A DNA stretch of 32,000 nt from an uncultured Candidatus Saccharibacteria bacterium (GCA_964543385.1 CAZIYE010000002.1:96715-128714), one strand, 5' to 3'; positions 9,152 through 17,484 are shown, numbered from the stretch's first letter. Numbers and translations: made by a program. The notes: generated from the letters alone by a model not told the origin.

Positions 9152-9751
9152 TTGATGTTTATGTATAATTTACTTATGAAAATTTTATCCAAAGAAAAAT
9201 CTCGGGAGATATTAATCAAATTATTATCACTTTTCCAATGCGATCAGTTTGAGAAGATGGATAAATATCTCAATTCAAAGCCATTCAGATTCTTCAAATT
9301 CTATGCAAGCAATTCTTGCGAGCTCCCATTTTTATTTTGGGATGAAAAAGAAGCCAAGAAGATATTTGATTCCGCGATTAGTATTAGTGGTGCGGTAAAG
9401 GATAGTGATGGTGGTGTATACGGTATTGGTAATTATGATTATTTAGATAAATTAGCAAACTTTTTGAAAACACAGGGCTTTGTAAATATATACGGCGCTG
9501 GTAATTGGGATCCCTTCGGCAATGTTGGTCACAGTGCCATTGGCCTAAATGTTAATGAAATTAGGGGTATTAGCAGACATAACTACGATGACATCTATTT
9601 CTTTGATGAAAATTTTACCTGGATGCTCGCATTTAATCATCATAGAAACGGATTTTTTGCCGGATCAAAAGAAATGATAGAAGATTTTTCATATTCAGTG
9701 CCCGAATTTCGCAAATACCTCAGAGAAGAATGCTCCTGCTGCGGGCTTTGA
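9152..9751 (+). CDS. Hypothetical protein ending in a Cys-rich tail ...FRKYLREECSCCGL
   Basis: 199-aa ORF with no recognisable domain. A more likely start is the ATG at 9176 (MKILSKEK...), 6 nt after tataat (9164..9169). Its last ~25 codons recur twice downstream as remnants. Confidence 0.6.
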   Translation: MMFMYNLLMKILSKEKSREILIKLLSLFQCDQFEKMDKYLNSKPFRFFKFYASNSCELPFLFWDEKEAKKIFDSAISISGAVKDSDGGVYGIGNYDYLDKLANFLKTQGFVNIYGAGNWDPFGNVGHSAIGLNVNEIRGISRHNYDDIYFFDENFTWMLAFNHHRNGFFAGSKEMIEDFSYSVPEFRKYLREECSCCGL

Positions 9752-9771
9752 CTTATCCGCTAAGTTGACAT

Positions 9772-9800
9772 TTGACACCCTTTAATTGCTTCTGTAGAAT
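9772..9800 (+). promoter_or_regulatory. Near-consensus sigma70 promoter TTGACA-N17-TAGAAT (left repeat copy)
   Basis: ttgaca at 9772..9777, a 17-nt spacer and tagaat at 9795..9800. A second overlapping ttgaca lies at 9765..9770. Confidence 0.6.
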
Positions 9801-9885
9801 TTATGCATGGATACGTTATGGACAAAATTTAGACCCAAACGCAAGTTGCGGGCTAAGTGTGTCTTTGAAGAACTCCAAATAGATA

Positions 9886-9908
9886 GGACCCCTCTGGGGC
9901 CCTTTTTT
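9886..9908 (+). terminator. Hairpin plus T6 inside the leader of the HD gene (left repeat copy)
   Basis: ggacccc tct ggggccc gives 4 GC pairs, one A-C mismatch and 2 further GC pairs, followed by tttttt (9903..9908). It lies about 80-100 nt downstream of the promoter and 45 nt upstream of the ATG. Confidence 0.5.
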
Positions 9909-9952
9909 GTATCCTGTACACTCACAATCTAACGAAAGGAGGACTCCGGAGA

Positions 9953-10153
9953 ATGGGAGCAATGTTGGTACACGTTTCTGCATTAGAATATCTCTCAGTG
10001 CTCGCTCTTCGGAGATTCTCCGAAGAAGACCTGCGAAGGATTCAAAAAGCAGAGGATTTCGCTACTGAGAAGTTGCAAGGCATATTGCGGCGTGATGGTG
10101 CCGCGGTCAATATTGCGAGATTTATCTATACTGCCTTTCAAAATTCGCTGTAA
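9953..10153 (+). pseudogene. Truncated 5' copy of the SpoT-like HD hydrolase gene (49 authentic codons + 17 unrelated codons)
   Basis: The first 146 nt are identical to 13741..13886 (MGAMLVHVSALEYLSVLALRRFSEEDLRRIQKAEDFATEKLQGILRRDG). The sequence diverges at 10099 and stops at 10153, before the HD motif. Confidence 0.8.
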
Positions 10154-10173: not shown

Positions 10174-10515
10174 CTAAGTGCTGTGGGGGGTCTTGATATT
10201 AGTTCTTTTAAAGCTGCCGCGGACAAGTTTAAAAGCCAAGCGTCCGTCCTTGTGCTGCATCGGTGTACCGATTAATTCTCCGCAATCACAAGTTAGATTT
10301 TTCAGGGTTGATTCGTCATGTTCATTGGAACTATTAAAACTATCGGATATTATCCGGTTTATATAACAACGTTTGAGCCAACCAGGACCATCTTTCTGGT
10401 ATAAAAATATCTTTTTTCCACATTTAGCGCACCTGACGCGGGTAATCTTAGCAGTGCCGCCTCTGGCAGCCAGATATTTATCTCTTTTGATTTTGAATTG
10501 GTGTGACTGTTCCAT
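10174..10515 (-). CDS. Hypothetical zinc-ribbon protein (CxxC ... CxC)
   Basis: 113 aa, basic. RVRCAKCGKK and LTCDCGEL form a putative 4-Cys knuckle pair. A GC-rich hairpin gaccccc (10161..10167) / gggggtc (10186..10192) spans its 3' end. Confidence 0.6.
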   Translation of the reverse strand: MEQSHQFKIKRDKYLAARGGTAKITRVRCAKCGKKIFLYQKDGPGWLKRCYINRIISDSFNSSNEHDESTLKNLTCDCGELIGTPMQHKDGRLAFKLVRGSFKRTNIKTPHST

Positions 10516-10569: not shown

Positions 10570-10659
10570 ATGAGAGAGCAAGATGATTCAAAATTCTCAT
10601 ATTCAGTGCCTGAATATCGCAAATACCTCAAAGAAGAATGCTCCTGTTGTGGGCTTTAA
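10570..10659 (+). pseudogene. Diverged remnant of the ...CSCCGL gene tail (reads as a 29-codon mini-ORF)
   Basis: atg at 10570 gives MREQDDSKFSYSVPEYRKYLKEECSCCGL then taa. It is about 85% identical by eye at the nucleotide level to 9671..9751. Downstream, 10690..10715 also retains the tttgaca...aattgctt...tagaat promoter-like module. Confidence 0.55.
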
Positions 10660-10837
10660 ATTTTTTAGTTCTGCATTACAGTAAAGCCAATTTGACAAAA
10701 CAAATTGCTTAGAATATCATCATATGAAACAAGCTTTATAGAAAGAAAAATATCTCCCAGACAAGTAAAATGTTGTTAGGGGATCATCTTTTTATAGGAC
10801 AAAATATAGAATTTAAAATCCAAGCAAGAATCAAAAA

Positions 10838-12238
10838 ATGAATGCCAATAATCAAAGAGTTGCTATAGCTGGACTTGGACCTCATGCCAAACGTATCTAT
10901 ATTAGGGTTCTCGCAAATTATGAAATTCAACCAAAATTAGTAATAGATATACAGTCTTCTGAGGAAAGTGTTAGGAAATTTCTAAGAGAGCATAAAATCA
11001 AATGTGATCTATATTTTGTACCGGATAAAAACAAAGATCTTAGGCGTCTTTCCGGAGAAGACAAGAAAAATATTGCACGTCTCCTCAAAAAAAATAAAAT
11101 CAATAAAGCAATAATATCTACAGAACCAAAATCTCATGTCGCATATGCGGAATTTTTTTTGAAACAGAAGTTGCCAGTTCTAATGGATAAGCCAGTTACG
11201 GCCATAAAAAATGCATGTTTCGATGATCGCCTTGCCCAGCAAATCTATAAAGAATATAAGCATCTGAGAGATATGTCTATTCAAAATGATGTTCCTCTAG
11301 TAATCCAATCTCAGAGGAGATATCACGGTGGATATATCTTTATCAGGGAATTACTTAAAGATACCATATTAAAATATGGTATTCCGGTTACGCATATGGA
11401 TATTTATCATTGTGATGGTCAATGGAATATGCCAATAGAATACATTACTAGGGATAATCATCCTTTTAATTATGGGTATGGTAAGGTTTTACATAGTGGC
11501 TATCATTTTGTTGATTTCATGAGTTGGATAGTAGCTCTTAACAATTTATTACCAGACAAAAAGCCGGATTGTTTCGATGCTATTCACAAGACAGTTAAAC
11601 CTCAAGATCAACTCTTTCAACTTAATGAAAGCTATGAAAAACTTTTTGAAAAAGAGTTACCAGGATTGCCAGAGAAAGATTTTTCCAAAATGGGTGAACT
11701 AGATTCTTACTCATTTATGCAATTCAAAAGAGAGGGCAAAGTAGTCACTTCTGTAAATCTGAATATGTTGCACAGTGGATTTTCTCGACGGGCTAGTTCT
11801 GAATTGGCCAAGGATGTTTATAAAGGTAATGGCAGGGTAAGGCATGAGAGAATAAATATCCAGATTGGTCCGATACTCAATATACAAGTTCATAGTTATC
11901 AATCTTATGAAATCAAAGATAGCAGTTATTCAAAGAAAGAGATTGAACCTGGCGGTTTAGACCACTTCGATATTTATATATTCAGGAATTCTGGTATTAT
12001 CGGTGGCAAGTCGTTCGAAAAAATTCAGGTCTCCAACCGGAGCCGTATCAATAGGAGAACGCACATGGGCCATAATGAGGAAGCCAGGGAAAGGTGCACA
12101 AAAGATTGGTTACAAGGAAATGAGAGTGAGAATGATGTGTTAAAACACAAGCTCACTAATTTAGTTATGTCTACCCTATATCGCTGTTCTGCCAAGGAAA
12201 ATTTAGGCAGATTCCCATATATGGAAGTTAAACTGTAG
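10838..12238 (+). CDS. Gfo/Idh/MocA-like oxidoreductase-fold protein
   Basis: 466 aa. N-terminal RVAIAGLGPHAKRIY (Rossmann GxGxxA-type), then AIISTEPKSHVAYAEFFLKQKLPVLMDKPV (the ..TP...H......AL..GKHVL.EKP pattern). HSGYHFVDFMSWI lies in the C-terminal domain. No SD is visible. Confidence 0.6.
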   Translation: MNANNQRVAIAGLGPHAKRIYIRVLANYEIQPKLVIDIQSSEESVRKFLREHKIKCDLYFVPDKNKDLRRLSGEDKKNIARLLKKNKINKAIISTEPKSHVAYAEFFLKQKLPVLMDKPVTAIKNACFDDRLAQQIYKEYKHLRDMSIQNDVPLVIQSQRRYHGGYIFIRELLKDTILKYGIPVTHMDIYHCDGQWNMPIEYITRDNHPFNYGYGKVLHSGYHFVDFMSWIVALNNLLPDKKPDCFDAIHKTVKPQDQLFQLNESYEKLFEKELPGLPEKDFSKMGELDSYSFMQFKREGKVVTSVNLNMLHSGFSRRASSELAKDVYKGNGRVRHERINIQIGPILNIQVHSYQSYEIKDSSYSKKEIEPGGLDHFDIYIFRNSGIIGGKSFEKIQVSNRSRINRRTHMGHNEEARERCTKDWLQGNESENDVLKHKLTNLVMSTLYRCSAKENLGRFPYMEVKL

Positions 12239-12276
12239 TTTGACAATCAAATCCAAGTACGAGGGGGAGCTGAAAG

Positions 12277-12969
12277 ATGCCGGTTACTGTGGCGTTTGAC
12301 GGTTTGAATCGATGCGGTAAAGGCACCCAGGCAGCATTGCTGCAGTCTCGCCTTCGCGAGATGGATGTTTTTTCCGTGATCATCAGAGGCGACGGTTCGA
12401 GGGATGGCTTGGGATTGACACCAGGTGATCCAGAAGACCTCTGGTGGCAAGGCTTCAAAAGCTGTCTAAAGGGCAGCGAAGGGACAACGCGCTGGTTCGA
12501 TAAATGGAATGAAGCAGCGTGTCGCTTAGCGCATGAATTAATTTGCTGGCAGGGAATAACATTCCCTCAAATGCTGAAAGATTCAGGGCGTAAAAGCGGA
12601 GTCTTACTTATCGATCGGAGCATTATTTCCAGAATTATGGTTATGCGGCAAGCCGGAGAGTATAACGGTTTAAACAGCCTGTATACTGTCGGAGGCGAGC
12701 CACAAGACATTGACTGGGAAGAGGTGCTACCCACAGTGCTGTTCAATTTCCATGTGCCCCAAGAGGTACTTCTGGCACGGTTGGATCATGATGATCCAAA
12801 GTATCAGTTCCGAAAGGGCATTATCGAACAGCATTTCCAACTCCATGTCTCTGTTTCTAGGGAGCTGCCAGAAGAAATTTTAGGCAGAACAATCCCTTTG
12901 AACGGCGACAATGAGCTTGAGGTTATCCACGAAGAAATATCTGCGGTAGTGGAACCTCTATTGCATTAG
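12277..12969 (+). CDS. P-loop kinase, thymidylate-kinase-like (divergent)
   Basis: 230 aa. VAFDGLNRCGKGTQAALL is a Walker A motif in the dTMP-kinase context (.EG.DG.GKsTq). LLIDRSIISR resembles the DRY/DR motif. It is visibly GC-richer (first 60 nt are 55% GC) than both neighbours, and its SD GGGGGAG is unlike the local style. Confidence 0.6.
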   Translation: MPVTVAFDGLNRCGKGTQAALLQSRLREMDVFSVIIRGDGSRDGLGLTPGDPEDLWWQGFKSCLKGSEGTTRWFDKWNEAACRLAHELICWQGITFPQMLKDSGRKSGVLLIDRSIISRIMVMRQAGEYNGLNSLYTVGGEPQDIDWEEVLPTVLFNFHVPQEVLLARLDHDDPKYQFRKGIIEQHFQLHVSVSRELPEEILGRTIPLNGDNELEVIHEEISAVVEPLLH

Positions 12970-12979
12970 TGCGGGCAGA

Positions 12980-13002
12980 GTGTGGGGCAGGACGCCCCAC
13001 AC
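12980..13002 (+). other. GC-rich 9-bp hairpin between the kinase and Nudix genes
   Basis: gtgtggggc (12980..12988) / gccccacac (12994..13002) with loop aggac. No clean T-run follows, so it is not a classical terminator. Confidence 0.5.
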
Positions 13003-13032
13003 CATAATTTGAAAAAGTAATAAAAGGAGTAT

Positions 13033-13461
13033 ATGAGGCACAGTTTTGATTCAGTGAATGTCAGTACAATAATTTTTAATAGAAAAGGACAGGTTCTTTT
13101 GGGAAAAAGAAGTATGGACGAGGATGTATATCCCGGACTTTGGTGTGTGCCTGGAGGCAAGATAGATGTGGAAGCCTGTGAAGGTGAAATTATCGAGAAC
13201 AATTTAAAAAGAGAGGTGAAGGAAGAGATAGGGATAGAGATAGAACCTCTCTTTTATCTTGCTAGCAATTGTCTTATAAAAGGAGACGAGGCAAAATTAT
13301 ATCTGATGTTTGTATCAGAGCATGTTGCCGGTGAGCCATTTGCACTTGACGGTACCGAAGAAGTTAAATGGTTTGAAATCGATGAACTAACACCAGAAAT
13401 GCTAACGCCTAAAACCTATGACAATATTCAAAAAGCGAGTGACAAAAGAATATCTCTCTAA
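13033..13461 (+). CDS. NUDIX hydrolase
   Basis: 142 aa. GGKIDVEACEGEIIENNLKREVKEEIGI contains the REVKEEIGI core of the Nudix box, with a longer than usual loop. The SD AAGGAG lies 5 nt upstream. Confidence 0.8.
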   Translation: MRHSFDSVNVSTIIFNRKGQVLLGKRSMDEDVYPGLWCVPGGKIDVEACEGEIIENNLKREVKEEIGIEIEPLFYLASNCLIKGDEAKLYLMFVSEHVAGEPFALDGTEEVKWFEIDELTPEMLTPKTYDNIQKASDKRISL

Positions 13462-13539
13462 AAATATCTAGACAATTTCGAAATCTTAATTTATTTCCGC
13501 AAATATCTCAGAGAAAAATGCTCCTGCTGCGGGCTTTGA
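13462..13539 (+). pseudogene. Remnant of the ...CSCCGL gene tail, in frame with the Nudix ORF after its single TAA
   Basis: Codons after the Nudix stop read KYLDNFEILIYFRKYLREKCSCCGL then tga, with no start codon of their own. The last 7 codons lie inside the perfect repeat. Confidence 0.6.
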
Positions 13540-13559
13540 CTTATCCGCTAAGTTGACAT

Positions 13560-13588
13560 TTGACACCCTTTAATTGCTTCTGTAGAAT
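13560..13588 (+). promoter_or_regulatory. Near-consensus sigma70 promoter TTGACA-N17-TAGAAT (right repeat copy), driving the intact HD gene
   Basis: Same sequence as 9772..9800, shifted by 3788. Confidence 0.6.
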
Positions 13589-13673
13589 TTATGCATGGAT
13601 ACGTTATGGACAAAATTTAGACCCAAACGCAAGTTGCGGGCTAAGTGTGTCTTTGAAGAACTCCAAATAGATA

Positions 13674-13696
13674 GGACCCCTCTGGGGCCCTTTTTT
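13674..13696 (+). terminator. Hairpin plus T6 in the HD gene leader (right repeat copy)
   Basis: Same sequence as 9886..9908. It could also serve as the terminator of the Nudix gene. Confidence 0.5.
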
Positions 13697-13740
13697 GTAT
13701 CCTGTACACTCACAATCTAACGAAAGGAGGACTCCGGAGA

Positions 13741-14376
13741 ATGGGAGCAATGTTGGTACACGTTTCTGCATTAGAATATCTCTCAGTGCTCGCTCTTCGG
13801 AGATTCTCCGAAGAAGACCTGCGAAGGATTCAAAAAGCAGAGGATTTCGCTACTGAGAAGTTGCAAGGCATATTGCGGCGTGATGGCACACCAGCCATTG
13901 AGCACTCAAGAGCACTTGCACTCAAAGCATGCGAGCTAAAACTGTCAGCAAACGCTATAGCGATTGCCTGGTTGCACGATGTGTTGGAGGACAACCTCAA
14001 TGTCACATCGTGGGACCTGTACTGTTTGTTTGGAGTCGTCCATGGGGCGATCATCACCAACGGCGTAATAGCCTTGACACAATGCGACTGGATGTCTGAC
14101 GAAGTGTACTTCAATAGGATCGAAGTTGCATCCTCAGTCAACTGGGAGATTGTAGTCGTCAAATTAATTGATCGCTGGCATTTCCATTCGGACTTTTACA
14201 ACGGTCCGGAGAAGAAAGAGCTAGCCAAGATTGACCAGACACAGAAGATCTTCCAGCAGACTATCAGAAACTGTGAAGTATTAGTTCCGGAAGATTTCCG
14301 GTCGACATACAATCAGTTGCTGGATGAAGTACTGGAGCTTGCAGAAATCCGGCAAGCTGAACTAATGGCCGCATAG
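13741..14376 (+). CDS. Small alarmone hydrolase-like HD-domain protein (RelA/SpoT hydrolase family)
   Basis: 211 aa. RRDGTPAIEHSRALA...AIAIAWLHDVLEDN...LFG...GVIALTQ and later VVKLIDRWHFH parallel the SpoT/Mesh1 hydrolase pattern (R.sGePy..Hp..VA....AALLHDv.EDT...FG...V.GVtKL...KLADRLHN). GC-richer than the surrounding housekeeping genes. Confidence 0.7.
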   Translation: MGAMLVHVSALEYLSVLALRRFSEEDLRRIQKAEDFATEKLQGILRRDGTPAIEHSRALALKACELKLSANAIAIAWLHDVLEDNLNVTSWDLYCLFGVVHGAIITNGVIALTQCDWMSDEVYFNRIEVASSVNWEIVVVKLIDRWHFHSDFYNGPEKKELAKIDQTQKIFQQTIRNCEVLVPEDFRSTYNQLLDEVLELAEIRQAELMAA

Positions 14377-14451
14377 GCTCTGTCCACGATGGACCGAGCC
14401 TATTGCATTTTTATATTAGAAAAATTAATCAAGTTATGCTATAAAAATAAT

Positions 14452-16623
14452 ATGAAAGAAATTGCAAAAGCCTACGACCATCAACAATTTGAAGAACCCA
14501 TCTATAAGCACTGGGAAGACTCTGGTTATTTTAAGCCTGAAATAAATATGGGCAAAAAGCCAGAATATGACAGAGAAATTGACGGTAAGCCTTTTGTTAT
14601 CTCTATGCCACCGCCGAATGTAACAGGTAAGTTACATGTTGGCCACTCGTTGTTTATTACATTGCAAGATATAATGATCCGATATCATCGCTTGAAAGGC
14701 GAACCAACTCTTTGGCTGCCAGGAACAGATCATGCAGGTATTGCCACTCAAACTGTAGTCGATAAAATGCTTAAGAAACAAGGAATCGACAAGCGAGAGC
14801 TTGGCCGTGAAAAATTCATTGAAGAAGTGTGGAAATGGAAAGAAGAGTACGGAGGTACTATTACTAGACAACTCCGTCGTATGGGCGCTTCTTGTGACTG
14901 GTCAAGAGAGAGATTTACGCTTGATGAAGGCCTTAGTTTCGCTGTTCGTAAAGCCTTTGTTGATCTCTATAAAAAAGAGCTGATATATCAGGGGCTTAGA
15001 GTTGTGAACTGGTGTCCTCGTTGTCGTACAGCTATTGCTGATGATGAAGTCGAATATCAAGAACAGAAATCAAAATTATATTGGATCAAATATGGTCCCT
15101 TTGTATTGGCGACTACTCGTCCTGAAACTAAATTAGGTGATACTGCAGTTGCGGTCAATCCAAAAGATAAAAGATACCTTGATATGGTTGGCAAAAAGTA
15201 TATGATTCCGGGAGTTTTAGGTGAATTTGAGGTCATAGTGGTTGCTGACAATGCGGTTGATCCCGCGTTTGGTAGTGGTGCGGTAAAAGTCACTCCCGCA
15301 CATAGCTTCGCGGACTACGAAATTGCTCAACGTCATAACCTTTCAATGAAGCAGATAATCGATGAAAATGGTCGTATGATGGCTAATACTGGTAAATATG
15401 CCGGAATGAAGACCTCTGAGGCCAGAGAAGCCATAGTGGCGGACATGGACAAGCTGGGATTAATTGATCATGTAGACGAATATGATAACAGTCTTCCGAC
15501 TTGCTATCGTTGTGGAGGAACTATCGAGCCGATTCCATCGAAGCAATGGTTTGTTAAGATGAAAGATCTTGCCAATAGGGCAAAGAAAGTTGTTGAAGAT
15601 GGAAAAATGGATATAATTCCTGATCGTTTCAAAAAGTTGTATATCCAATGGATGGAAAATATTCGCGACTGGTGCGTGTCTCGTCAAATTTGGTGGGGTC
15701 ATCAGATCCCAGTTTGGTATAGGGGTGATGAGATCTATTGCGGCATGGAAGCTCCCGATGGTAAGGATTGGAAACAGGATCAAGATGTGCTCGATACTTG
15801 GTTTTCCTCTGCCTTGTGGCCTTTTTCAACCCTTGGTTGGCCAGGGGAGACAAAGGACTACAACTATTTTTATTCCACAACAGTAATGGAAACTGGTTAT
15901 GATATTTTGCCTTTCTGGGTAGCTAGAATGGCTACTTTTGGTCTCGAATTTACCGGCAAGGTACCTTTTGAAACTGTTTATTTTCACGGCCTAGTTCGCG
16001 ATGAAAAGAATAGGAAAATGAGCAAATCTCTTGGCAATGTTTTAGACCCTCTCGATATTATTCCAAAATATGGCACGGATGCTCTTAGGATGGCGCTTGT
16101 AGTCGGTTCAGCTCCTGGTCAAGATTTAGCAGTAGGGGAGTCAAAGATTAAGGGCTATCGTAATTTCTCTAATAAAATATGGAACGCTTCCCGGTTTGTT
16201 CTGCTGCAAGTTTCAAATGGGGATTTAAGAACCGGTGAAATTGGTGCAGCAAGGTTAGATAGTTTAGACATAAACAAAGCAACTCTAACTAATCAAGACA
16301 AAGCTATACTAAAGGATTTAGAAAATGTTAAAAAGTCCGTCACGGAGAAATTAGACAAGTTCAGATTCTCTCAAGCAGGAGAGGAATTGTATGAATTTTT
16401 CTGGCATACATTTTGTGACATCTATATAGAAAAAGCAAAAGAACAAATTGCAGATGAGAAGTTCAAGGATAATACTAAAAAAATATTGATAAAAATCCTC
16501 TCTGAATCCCTAATCCTTCTTCATCCTTTTGTGCCTTTCGTCACTGAGGCTGTATGGCAGGAGCTTCGGAAGGTATATCCAGATCTCTCCAAATCCATCA
16601 TGATTTCAAGATGGCCTCTATAA
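14452..16623 (+). CDS. valS: Valyl-tRNA synthetase
   Basis: PPPNVTGKLHVGHSL (HIGH motif), GTDHAGIATQ, the WCPRCRTAI editing-domain zinc motif and KMSKSLGNV (KMSKS). I use the ATG at 14452 (MKEIAKAYDHQQFE...), not the track's upstream extension from 14389. Confidence 0.95.
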   Translation: MKEIAKAYDHQQFEEPIYKHWEDSGYFKPEINMGKKPEYDREIDGKPFVISMPPPNVTGKLHVGHSLFITLQDIMIRYHRLKGEPTLWLPGTDHAGIATQTVVDKMLKKQGIDKRELGREKFIEEVWKWKEEYGGTITRQLRRMGASCDWSRERFTLDEGLSFAVRKAFVDLYKKELIYQGLRVVNWCPRCRTAIADDEVEYQEQKSKLYWIKYGPFVLATTRPETKLGDTAVAVNPKDKRYLDMVGKKYMIPGVLGEFEVIVVADNAVDPAFGSGAVKVTPAHSFADYEIAQRHNLSMKQIIDENGRMMANTGKYAGMKTSEAREAIVADMDKLGLIDHVDEYDNSLPTCYRCGGTIEPIPSKQWFVKMKDLANRAKKVVEDGKMDIIPDRFKKLYIQWMENIRDWCVSRQIWWGHQIPVWYRGDEIYCGMEAPDGKDWKQDQDVLDTWFSSALWPFSTLGWPGETKDYNYFYSTTVMETGYDILPFWVARMATFGLEFTGKVPFETVYFHGLVRDEKNRKMSKSLGNVLDPLDIIPKYGTDALRMALVVGSAPGQDLAVGESKIKGYRNFSNKIWNASRFVLLQVSNGDLRTGEIGAARLDSLDINKATLTNQDKAILKDLENVKKSVTEKLDKFRFSQAGEELYEFFWHTFCDIYIEKAKEQIADEKFKDNTKKILIKILSESLILLHPFVPFVTEAVWQELRKVYPDLSKSIMISRWPL

Positions 16624-16909
16624 ACAGTCTTTAGTAGTAGTCAGCTGTTTGTCGATTAAATAATTTCTATTTGGTCTTTTCTATATTGTTTTAGTTGTCA
16701 TATTCTAGGATTATTTTGTTAAATATCATTAATCAACATTATTGCCACAAATGGTTGGATTTTTAGCAAAAACAAGTAGTAAACAGCATAAAAAAGAACA
16801 GATAGCTCAAAAAAGAAGGCAAAGATTTCGAGCTAAGCTTTGGCAGCACAGTAATAAATATGTTGACATGTGGTTTAAAAAAATTAAAAGTTTTTTTAAC
16901 AGGAGATAG

Positions 16910-17413
16910 ATGGCTGGAAGAAGAAAAAAGCAAATAGCAATCGGTACAATCATGGCCCTTATAATTATTCTTGTAGTTGTATTCTTTTATGGAATTAAGG
17001 CAGATAATAGGCAGGATAATCCAGAAATAACAAGTATACGGACTGATAGCTTTGATGAGAAAGTACATAATGTAGAGCCCGACAAAGCGTATTTAAGAAG
17101 TATAGATACAGAAGGGTTTGGTTTAACAAAAAGGATCTATGCAAACGGCAAGTTTATGCATACTGTGAGTGCAAGTTTGCCGCTAGTAGAGGATCCGGAG
17201 TTTTACCAGGGATGGCTTGTTAAGCCTGGCAATGATGTTGATAAAGAAGAATTTATTGCGACAGGAAAACTTATTTATACTGAGAGTGAATTTTTTCTCT
17301 TTTATGAATCGGATCAGGACTTGAAAGATTTCTCAAAAATTATAGTTTCGAAACAGATTCAAAATGATGCTGTTCCTAATAGCTATGTTCTAGTCGGATC
17401 ATTTGCAAACTGA
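16910..17413 (+). CDS. Hypothetical membrane-anchored extracytoplasmic protein
   Basis: 167 aa. A basic N-terminus and one TM helix (IAIGTIMALIIILVVVFFYGI) are followed by a soluble domain. The SD AGGAG lies 6 nt upstream. Confidence 0.6.
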   Translation: MAGRRKKQIAIGTIMALIIILVVVFFYGIKADNRQDNPEITSIRTDSFDEKVHNVEPDKAYLRSIDTEGFGLTKRIYANGKFMHTVSASLPLVEDPEFYQGWLVKPGNDVDKEEFIATGKLIYTESEFFLFYESDQDLKDFSKIIVSKQIQNDAVPNSYVLVGSFAN

Positions 17414-17484
17414 TTTTGACAAAATAGCAGATATCGCCTAATATAAATGTATTAAATTATTTAGGCAAAAACCAAGGAGAGCAT

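Follow-up and report, generated by a model that had tools for sequence, protein, structure and literature searches.

A horizontally acquired dehydrogenase-kinase-Nudix cassette and its resident HD-hydrolase neighbor in a Saccharibacteria genome

Four co-directional genes lie side by side in the genome of an uncultured Candidatus Saccharibacteria bacterium, and they raise two linked questions: which of them belong together, and what might those that do accomplish? The stretch of DNA analyzed here, referred to as the window, comprises 32,000 nucleotides (G000:C2:96715-128714) of a 0.90 Mb genome that is 98.7% complete. A first-pass annotation had described the four as a possible single system, an oxidoreductase set beside a kinase, a Nudix hydrolase, and an HD hydrolase that act on nucleotides, with the HD and/or Nudix protein serving as an off-switch. 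All four open reading frames (ORFs) are present on the + strand and are listed below with the next gene downstream.

10838-12238, + strand: divergent Gfo/Idh/MocA-fold NAD(P) oxidoreductase of 466 amino acids (aa), hereafter the dehydrogenase
12277-12969, + strand: thymidylate-kinase-like nucleoside monophosphate (NMP) kinase, 230 aa, of a distinct small family, with P-loop, DR motif, and LID
13033-13461, + strand: MutT-like Nudix hydrolase, 142 aa, with the REx2EE motif
13741-14376, + strand: stand-alone RelA/SpoT-type HD hydrolase, 211 aa, which resembles a small alarmone hydrolase
14389-16623, + strand: valS, the conserved right flank of a variable hotspot

The first three genes are a cassette rather than chance neighbors, and together they make up an operon, at positions 10835-13461, that was gained by horizontal transfer. 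The HD gene, predicted from its motifs to encode a (p)ppGpp-hydrolase-like protein, is a resident flank with its own promoter-like site and leader and is not a cassette member. A genuine cassette of three genes can thus be told apart from a gene that is adjacent by insertion site alone. The function tentatively favored for the triad, by analogy with known gene clusters and at a likelihood somewhat short of probable, is a nucleotide pathway in which the dehydrogenase would oxidize a sugar hydroxyl while the Nudix hydrolase and the thymidylate kinase (TMPK)-like kinase would set the phosphorylation state.

Conservation of the triad and the place of the HD gene

Dehydrogenase, kinase, and Nudix genes co-occur in other genomes, far beyond chance. 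Close relatives of the kinase are few (10 in the protein search), and every one that sits on a long enough contig adjoins dehydrogenase and Nudix homologs. The closest cassette, L015, shares 80%, 67%, and 81% identity with the dehydrogenase, kinase, and Nudix hydrolase, respectively, in identical gene order. The triad loci L016-18 derive from a Parcubacteria genome, and in L019-22, where kinase identity is 39%, the order is dehydrogenase-Nudix-kinase and the called genes overlap by 8 nucleotides (nt). Across these triads the kinases are 39-67% identical to that of the window, and the gene order is permuted. Several gene orders are also seen among the 11 kinase loci that were returned when metagenome contigs were scanned using the kinase alignment; the dehydrogenase adjoins the kinase in 10/10 informative ones, the eleventh locus being only 1 kb long and so uninformative.

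A survey that starts from the dehydrogenase leads to the same partners. Among 77 genome loci in which the dehydrogenase gene is full-length, a partner Nudix lies within three genes or is fused in 42, and a P-loop NMP-kinase-like gene is present in 19. These kinases come from three families: (i) that of the window kinase (10 loci), (ii) a bona fide PF02223 kinase, in Chlamydiae, and (iii) an AAA_17 kinase, in genomes of the Paceibacteria type. Natural gene fusions back the link of the dehydrogenase to Nudix and NMP kinases. Many family members, of ~650 aa, are dehydrogenase-Nudix fusions, and P0157 (701 aa) joins a dehydrogenase, 31% identical to that of the window over 466 residues, to a kinase. 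In P0148 a kinase is fused to an APH domain, and in a Streptomyces plasmid family member the dehydrogenase is fused to an APH-type kinase. The repeated recruitment of different kinase lineages, along with these pairwise fusions, is a strong argument for one pathway.

Partners of the dehydrogenase in other lineages include a CYTH protein and a LysR-radical-SAM protein (Clostridial loci among them). Its neighbors in Firmicutes include histidine and HAD phosphatases, adenylating enzymes, carrier proteins, and exporters, which form biosynthetic-looking clusters. The CYTH, LysR-radical-SAM, MazG, APH-type, and phosphatase partners handle nucleoside triphosphates (NTPs) or transfer phosphate. The MazG-type NTP pyrophosphohydrolase is found on a 250-kb metagenome contig (L138, 7925-9100), where it follows the triad together with a xylose-isomerase-like TIM-barrel protein. 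In two Chloroflexi loci (L052, 8142-9641; L094, 3383-4843), a dehydrogenase-kinase pair is followed by a phosphopantetheine-carrier/sulfotransferase fusion. The L094 genes overlap by 4 nt in longest-ORF calls, and in L052 the next gene after the carrier-sulfotransferase fusion is a GT2-GT1 fusion.

The HD gene does not share this linkage. No HD homolog was found near the cassette in ~100 related loci. The relative G008 carries an HD ortholog of 57% identity, and neither the kinase nor the triad was found there. The sister genome G001 retains a relic of the HD 3′ end directly upstream of valS, which indicates that the HD-valS adjacency is ancestral and that the triad arrived later. DNA homology between the window and L015 covers exactly positions 10835-13461, from the dehydrogenase start to the Nudix stop codon, and ends there. 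On the strength of neighborhoods, ortholog, relic, and homology boundary, the HD protein is rejected as a cassette partner, and the proposal of a four-gene system with an HD off-switch falls with them. Adjacency and shared direction of the genes speak for such a system, as do the lack of a terminator between the Nudix gene and the HD leader and an analogy with cordycepin synthesis, in which Cns1-3 combine kinase, HD phosphohydrolase, and oxidoreductase functions. It is nonetheless extremely unlikely, having been largely refuted by the comparative data. The HD gene would instead have become the neighbor of the cassette through insertion.

The HD protein scores 23.2 bits against HD_4, under the cut-off of 27.2, and matches Rel/SpoT hydrolase domains in the PDB with an E-value of 1.5e-8, with H55, H79-D80, E83-D84, and D144-R145 aligned. 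It resembles small alarmone hydrolases in this alignment and in the "H … HD … ED … DRxH" residues, and differs from them in its sub-threshold HD_4 score; in other genomes it is unlinked to the triad. A promoter-like site (TTGACA-17-TAGAAT, 13560-13588) precedes the gene and is followed by a leader of ~100 nt, which ends in a GC-rich hairpin with a T6 run at 13673-13700, just before the Shine-Dalgarno sequence. The HD gene and the cassette had been thought to share a terminator/promoter module. In fact the interval from the Nudix stop to the promoter-like site of the HD gene contains no terminator, and the hairpin belongs to the HD leader. It may act as an attenuator or belong to a small RNA, although the folding z-score is only -2.1. 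A riboswitch was considered and set aside, as the leader has no Rfam match even at E ≤1. The promoter/leader region (13560-13745) is duplicated at 9772-9957.

The three cassette proteins

Profile and structure searches bear out the earlier naming of the three proteins as Gfo/Idh/MocA-like, thymidylate-kinase-like, and Nudix. The dehydrogenase matches Pfam PF01408 (GFO_IDH_MocA) with 27.3 bits (cut-off 24) over its N-terminus only, and has a Rossmann motif GLGPHA, a DKP motif equivalent to EKP, and an HSGYH motif. Its AlphaFold2 (AF2) model, with a predicted local distance difference test (pLDDT) score of 88, attains the two-domain Gfo/Idh/MocA fold, including the C-terminal alpha/beta substrate domain. 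Foldseek aligns the model to 8qc5, GFOR, 8tdi, and 6ktj with a probability of 1.0, an E-value of 2.6e-16, and TM-scores on the target of 0.64-0.76. The best structural matches comprise NAD-dependent glycoside hydrolases, glucose-fructose oxidoreductase, glucuronide 3-dehydrogenase, DgpA, and scyllo-inositol dehydrogenase; as all of them score alike, their ranking does not reveal the substrate. In sequence-profile comparison, every solved structure is at most a weak relative of the dehydrogenase (E 5e-4), and profile and structure searches found neither a family model that extends beyond the Rossmann domain nor a solved relative.

This divergent 466-aa family, which carries large insertions, has more than 847 matches and over 800 sequence clusters. 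In the records found, its members are ~40% identical across Patescibacteria, including Saccharibacteria, and Clostridia, Bacilli, Chlamydiae, Chloroflexi, Cyanobacteria, Mycobacterium, and Verrucomicrobia. Among the residues that never vary in the family are those of the DKP and HSGYH motifs and a group of Arg and Lys residues, a pattern that suggests an anionic substrate. Three ~459-aa upstream genes in L016 were examined as possible paralogs, and no relationship to the dehydrogenase was detected.

The kinase falls below the Pfam cut-off for Thymidylate_kin (PF02223; 17.9 bits against 27) and has no match in an NCBIfam search. Its AF2 model (pLDDT 88) retrieves only thymidylate kinases among the top 50 Foldseek matches (E 2e-8) and, in a viral library, deoxythymidine monophosphate (dTMP) or deoxynucleoside kinases; a sequence-profile search reaches Plasmodium TMPK with an E-value of 1e-6. 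The P-loop (GLNRCGKGTQ), D113, and R114 are invariant in the family, and a LID is present. A full HMMER search places ~264 clusters at 50% identity in this family and does not reach ordinary thymidylate kinases, and the members examined adjoin the dehydrogenase.

The window kinase shares with Tmk (PF02223) the fold, the DR motif, and the LID. The Arg in its P-loop is a likeness to type I TMPKs (GLNRCGKGTQ, compared with FEGLDRSGKSTQ of Plasmodium TMPK). It differs from Tmk in a conserved RGDGSR…WW insert and in a P-loop that ends in GKGT, an ending that resembles that of adenylate and UMP/CMP kinases. It had also been asked whether this gene is simply the sole tmk of the genome. It is not: a bona fide tmk lies at C2:36032-36613 and scores 81.4 bits, compared with 13.3 bits for the window kinase in the same genome search, and a housekeeping role is thereby ruled out.

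The kinase gene has a GC content of 48.6%, while its partner genes have 35.5% and 38.2%, and a strong Shine-Dalgarno sequence, GGGGGAG, precedes it. Both features had been described as foreign-looking, and both hold as observations. The use of the GC content as a sign of mosaic composition does not, since the GC of the kinase gene exceeds that of its partners in all six triads examined; the difference characterizes the cassette as such and does not mark recent mosaic assembly in this genome.

The Nudix hydrolase is clearly classified, with 67.4 bits against PF00293 (cut-off 21.1). Its REx2EE motif is intact (REVKEEIGI), and the Nudix-box loop contains a 4-residue insertion. Against the MutT equivalog TIGR00586 (8-oxo-dGTPase) it reaches 52.4 bits, under the cut-off of 97.9. 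It carries a MutT-like subgroup signature, FPGLWxxPGGK, common to other kinase-bearing triads.

The insertion locus and its repeats

The description of the locus as a nucleotide-centered, uncharacterized, and accessory gene set is supported. The kinase was found in 0/40 relatives and 0/400 sampled genomes of the phylum, and the dehydrogenase in 6/400 of the latter. The variable hotspot lies between a conserved 374-aa gene and valS. Its flanks are 77-82% identical at the DNA level to those in the sister genome G001, where the hotspot (L125, G001:C15 3793-9201) carries different cargo: a 2-thiouracil desulfurase, a zinc-ribbon gene, and a DUF1846 gene with a PF02223 kinase, as well as two ASCH proteins and a HAD hydrolase. 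The sister hotspot has a nucleotide-related cargo of its own, with its own extra thymidylate-kinase-like gene.

Such cargo bears on a salvage or house-cleaning role, in which the Nudix hydrolase would take an aberrant NTP to the NMP, the dehydrogenase would repair or convert it, and the kinase would return it to the pool. The role would suit an ultra-small bacterium with a 0.9 Mb genome that lives on scavenged nucleotides, and it is in keeping with the MutT-like character of the Nudix hydrolase and with the desulfurase, ASCH, HAD, and DUF1846/TMPK-like genes of the sister hotspot. Salvage is nevertheless unlikely, for the cassette is rare in the sampled phylum genomes and larger genomes place the dehydrogenase in biosynthetic-looking clusters with adenylating enzymes, carriers, and exporters.

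An anti-phage or anti-host role, in which the triad would make a toxic nucleotide analog or deplete a pool and the Nudix or HD protein would give self-protection, draws on the sporadic, horizontal distribution of the cassette and its position in a variable hotspot. The L015 cassette also lies beside SU10-like phage genes, and the Nudix hydrolase matches the candidate defense model PDC-S07 (PADLOC-DB 2.0). Natural 3′-modified nucleosides, moreover, act as chain terminators (PMC9239236). Against this role stand (i) the lack of PADLOC-DB 2.0 matches for the dehydrogenase, kinase, and HD protein, (ii) the failure to find the dehydrogenase among 50,697 phage records and in IMG/VR, (iii) the fact that the HD gene never adjoins the cassette elsewhere, and (iv) a defense neighborhood that is anecdotal. 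The role is very unlikely on balance. A phage-borne module was likewise considered and dropped, as no match was found in those phage collections.

The structure of the locus records how the cassette may have arrived. The elements on its two sides are as follows.

9710-10095, + strand: left copy of a 386-bp repeat, with the ORF199 tail, a promoter-like site, the hairpin of the leader, and the first ~47 HD codons
9953-10153: ORF of the decapitated HD copy
10174-10515, - strand: zinc-ribbon ORF of 113 aa (CxxC…CxC)
10594-10662, + strand: second copy of the ORF199 3′ tail, 88-92% identical
13498-13883, + strand: right copy of the 386-bp repeat, with a tail relic, a promoter-like site, the leader hairpin with its T-run, and the HD 5′ end

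The two 386-bp copies form a direct repeat with 99.5% identity, which confirms the reported repeat bounding the insert and the partial duplication of the HD gene, of which the first ~47 codons lie inside the repeat. A flanking duplication of this kind is expected if a circle bearing that homology integrated by a single crossover, and integration of a homology-bearing circle would explain the 386-bp duplication. The second tail copy is followed by a promoter-like site (TTGACA-17-TATCAT, 10692-10720), which probably drives the triad.

Three copies of the ORF199 3′ tail, with …RKYLREECSCCGL* as the encoded sequence, lie in the same orientation (9686-9754, 10594-10662, and 13474-13542), and a promoter-like TTGACA follows each of them. 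In the genome and the related loci searched, neither the tail nor the repeat element occurs anywhere but at this locus. The tail copies may mark a site of serial recombination.

The zinc-ribbon ORF belongs to a ~108-aa family whose members are 55-65% identical across bacteria of the candidate phyla radiation (CPR) and DPANN archaea, nearly all of them nameless. In L015 two copies flank the triad, in L016 and L099 copies are found close to it, and one is present in the sister hotspot; despite this recurrence near the triad, the family is widespread in CPR and DPANN. No tRNA or other RNA genes were found in the window. Downstream, valS encodes 744 aa and lacks approximately the last 160 of 860 ValS-profile positions. 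The sister-genome valS stops at the identical point, which makes the shortening a trait of the lineage and not a truncation by the insertion. The ~860 bp between valS and the next conserved gene (16624-17484) hold a 167-aa ORF with no Pfam match; this segment is missing from the sister genome and constitutes a second small indel at the locus.

A candidate nucleotide pathway and its precedents

No paper on the triad or on the dehydrogenase family was found in the literature searched. The nucleotide pathway favored here takes its cue from antibiotic biosynthesis. Pur10 is an ATP dehydrogenase that depends on NAD and oxidizes the 3′-OH of ATP, and Pur7 is a Nudix hydrolase that converts a modified NTP to the NMP (PMC11641026, PMC9239236). 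The pair recurs in the puromycin, A201A, cystocin, and 3′-amino-3′-deoxyguanosine clusters, and Pur10 is described as similar to RifL (PMC11641026, PMC9239236). By extension, the cassette Nudix would convert a (deoxy)NTP or an NDP-X (NDP, nucleoside diphosphate) to a monophosphate; the Gfo/Idh/MocA-fold enzyme, with Pur10 as precedent, would carry out an NAD(P)-dependent oxidation of a hydroxyl group on the sugar moiety; and the TMPK-like kinase would raise a monophosphate to the diphosphate, either feeding the pathway or re-activating its product. The proposal leaves the order and direction of the three steps unassigned.

Four observations weigh against this pathway. A Nudix hydrolase that takes NTP to NMP, paired with an NMP kinase, looks futile unless the two are specific for different nucleotide forms. 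No Pur4 aminotransferase or Pur3 phosphatase is encoded by the cassette or its flanks. Structurally, the dehydrogenase lies closest to dehydrogenases of sugars or cyclitols and to NAD-dependent glycosidases, all at similar scores, so that its substrate could also be a nucleotide-sugar or a free sugar phosphate. Lastly, glycosyltransferases, a sulfotransferase, and a MatE transporter lie near the dehydrogenase in Chlamydiae, Chloroflexi, and Mycobacterium.

The last two points lead to a role in nucleotide-sugar metabolism or envelope glycans, whereby the dehydrogenase would oxidize an NDP-sugar like WbpB or GnnA, the Nudix hydrolase would trim the NDP-sugar pool, and the kinase would recycle the NMP. 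Sugar 3-dehydrogenases are indeed the structural neighbors of the dehydrogenase, and the genes near it in those three lineages include GT2 and aminotransferase genes in addition to the sulfotransferase and MatE. The CPR cassettes, by contrast, come with no nucleotidyltransferase or glycosyltransferase, the partner Nudix resembles MutT rather than the NDP-sugar type, and NTPs are suggested by the CYTH, MoaA-like radical-SAM, and MazG partners. A glycan role is accordingly distinctly unlikely.

A bolder reading, which is speculative and quite improbable, is that the triad is a minimal and self-contained set of enzymes for making a nucleoside di- or triphosphate with a modified sugar, such as a 3′-oxidized or 3′-epimerized antimetabolite. 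The product would be made by a radical-free, NAD-dependent route and used by ultra-small epibionts against hosts, competitors, or phages, and the route would have been elaborated in larger genomes into exported nucleoside natural products. Defining the substrate of the dehydrogenase would annotate hundreds of genes and might show a new way in which modified nucleotides or nucleoside antibiotics are made. The Streptomyces plasmid homologs were considered as Pur-like and rejected, as their cluster differs in its APH, PIG-L, and Ldh genes.

When set beside the Pur10/Pur7 core, the cassette has the same clustering of a predicted NAD-dependent oxidoreductase with a Nudix hydrolase. It differs in having a TMPK-like kinase in place of the Pur4-type aminotransferase and Pur3-type phosphatase, and its dehydrogenase belongs to a 466-aa divergent family with large insertions. 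Phage nucleotide-modification systems offer a second comparison. T4 dCTPase, dCMP hydroxymethylase, and dNMP kinase, or MazZ and PurZ with kinases, combine an NTP pyrophosphatase, a modification at the NMP level, and a dedicated NMP kinase. The cassette, which was not found in the phage collections, appears to follow the same logic, with a Gfo/Idh/MocA dehydrogenase as its modifying enzyme.

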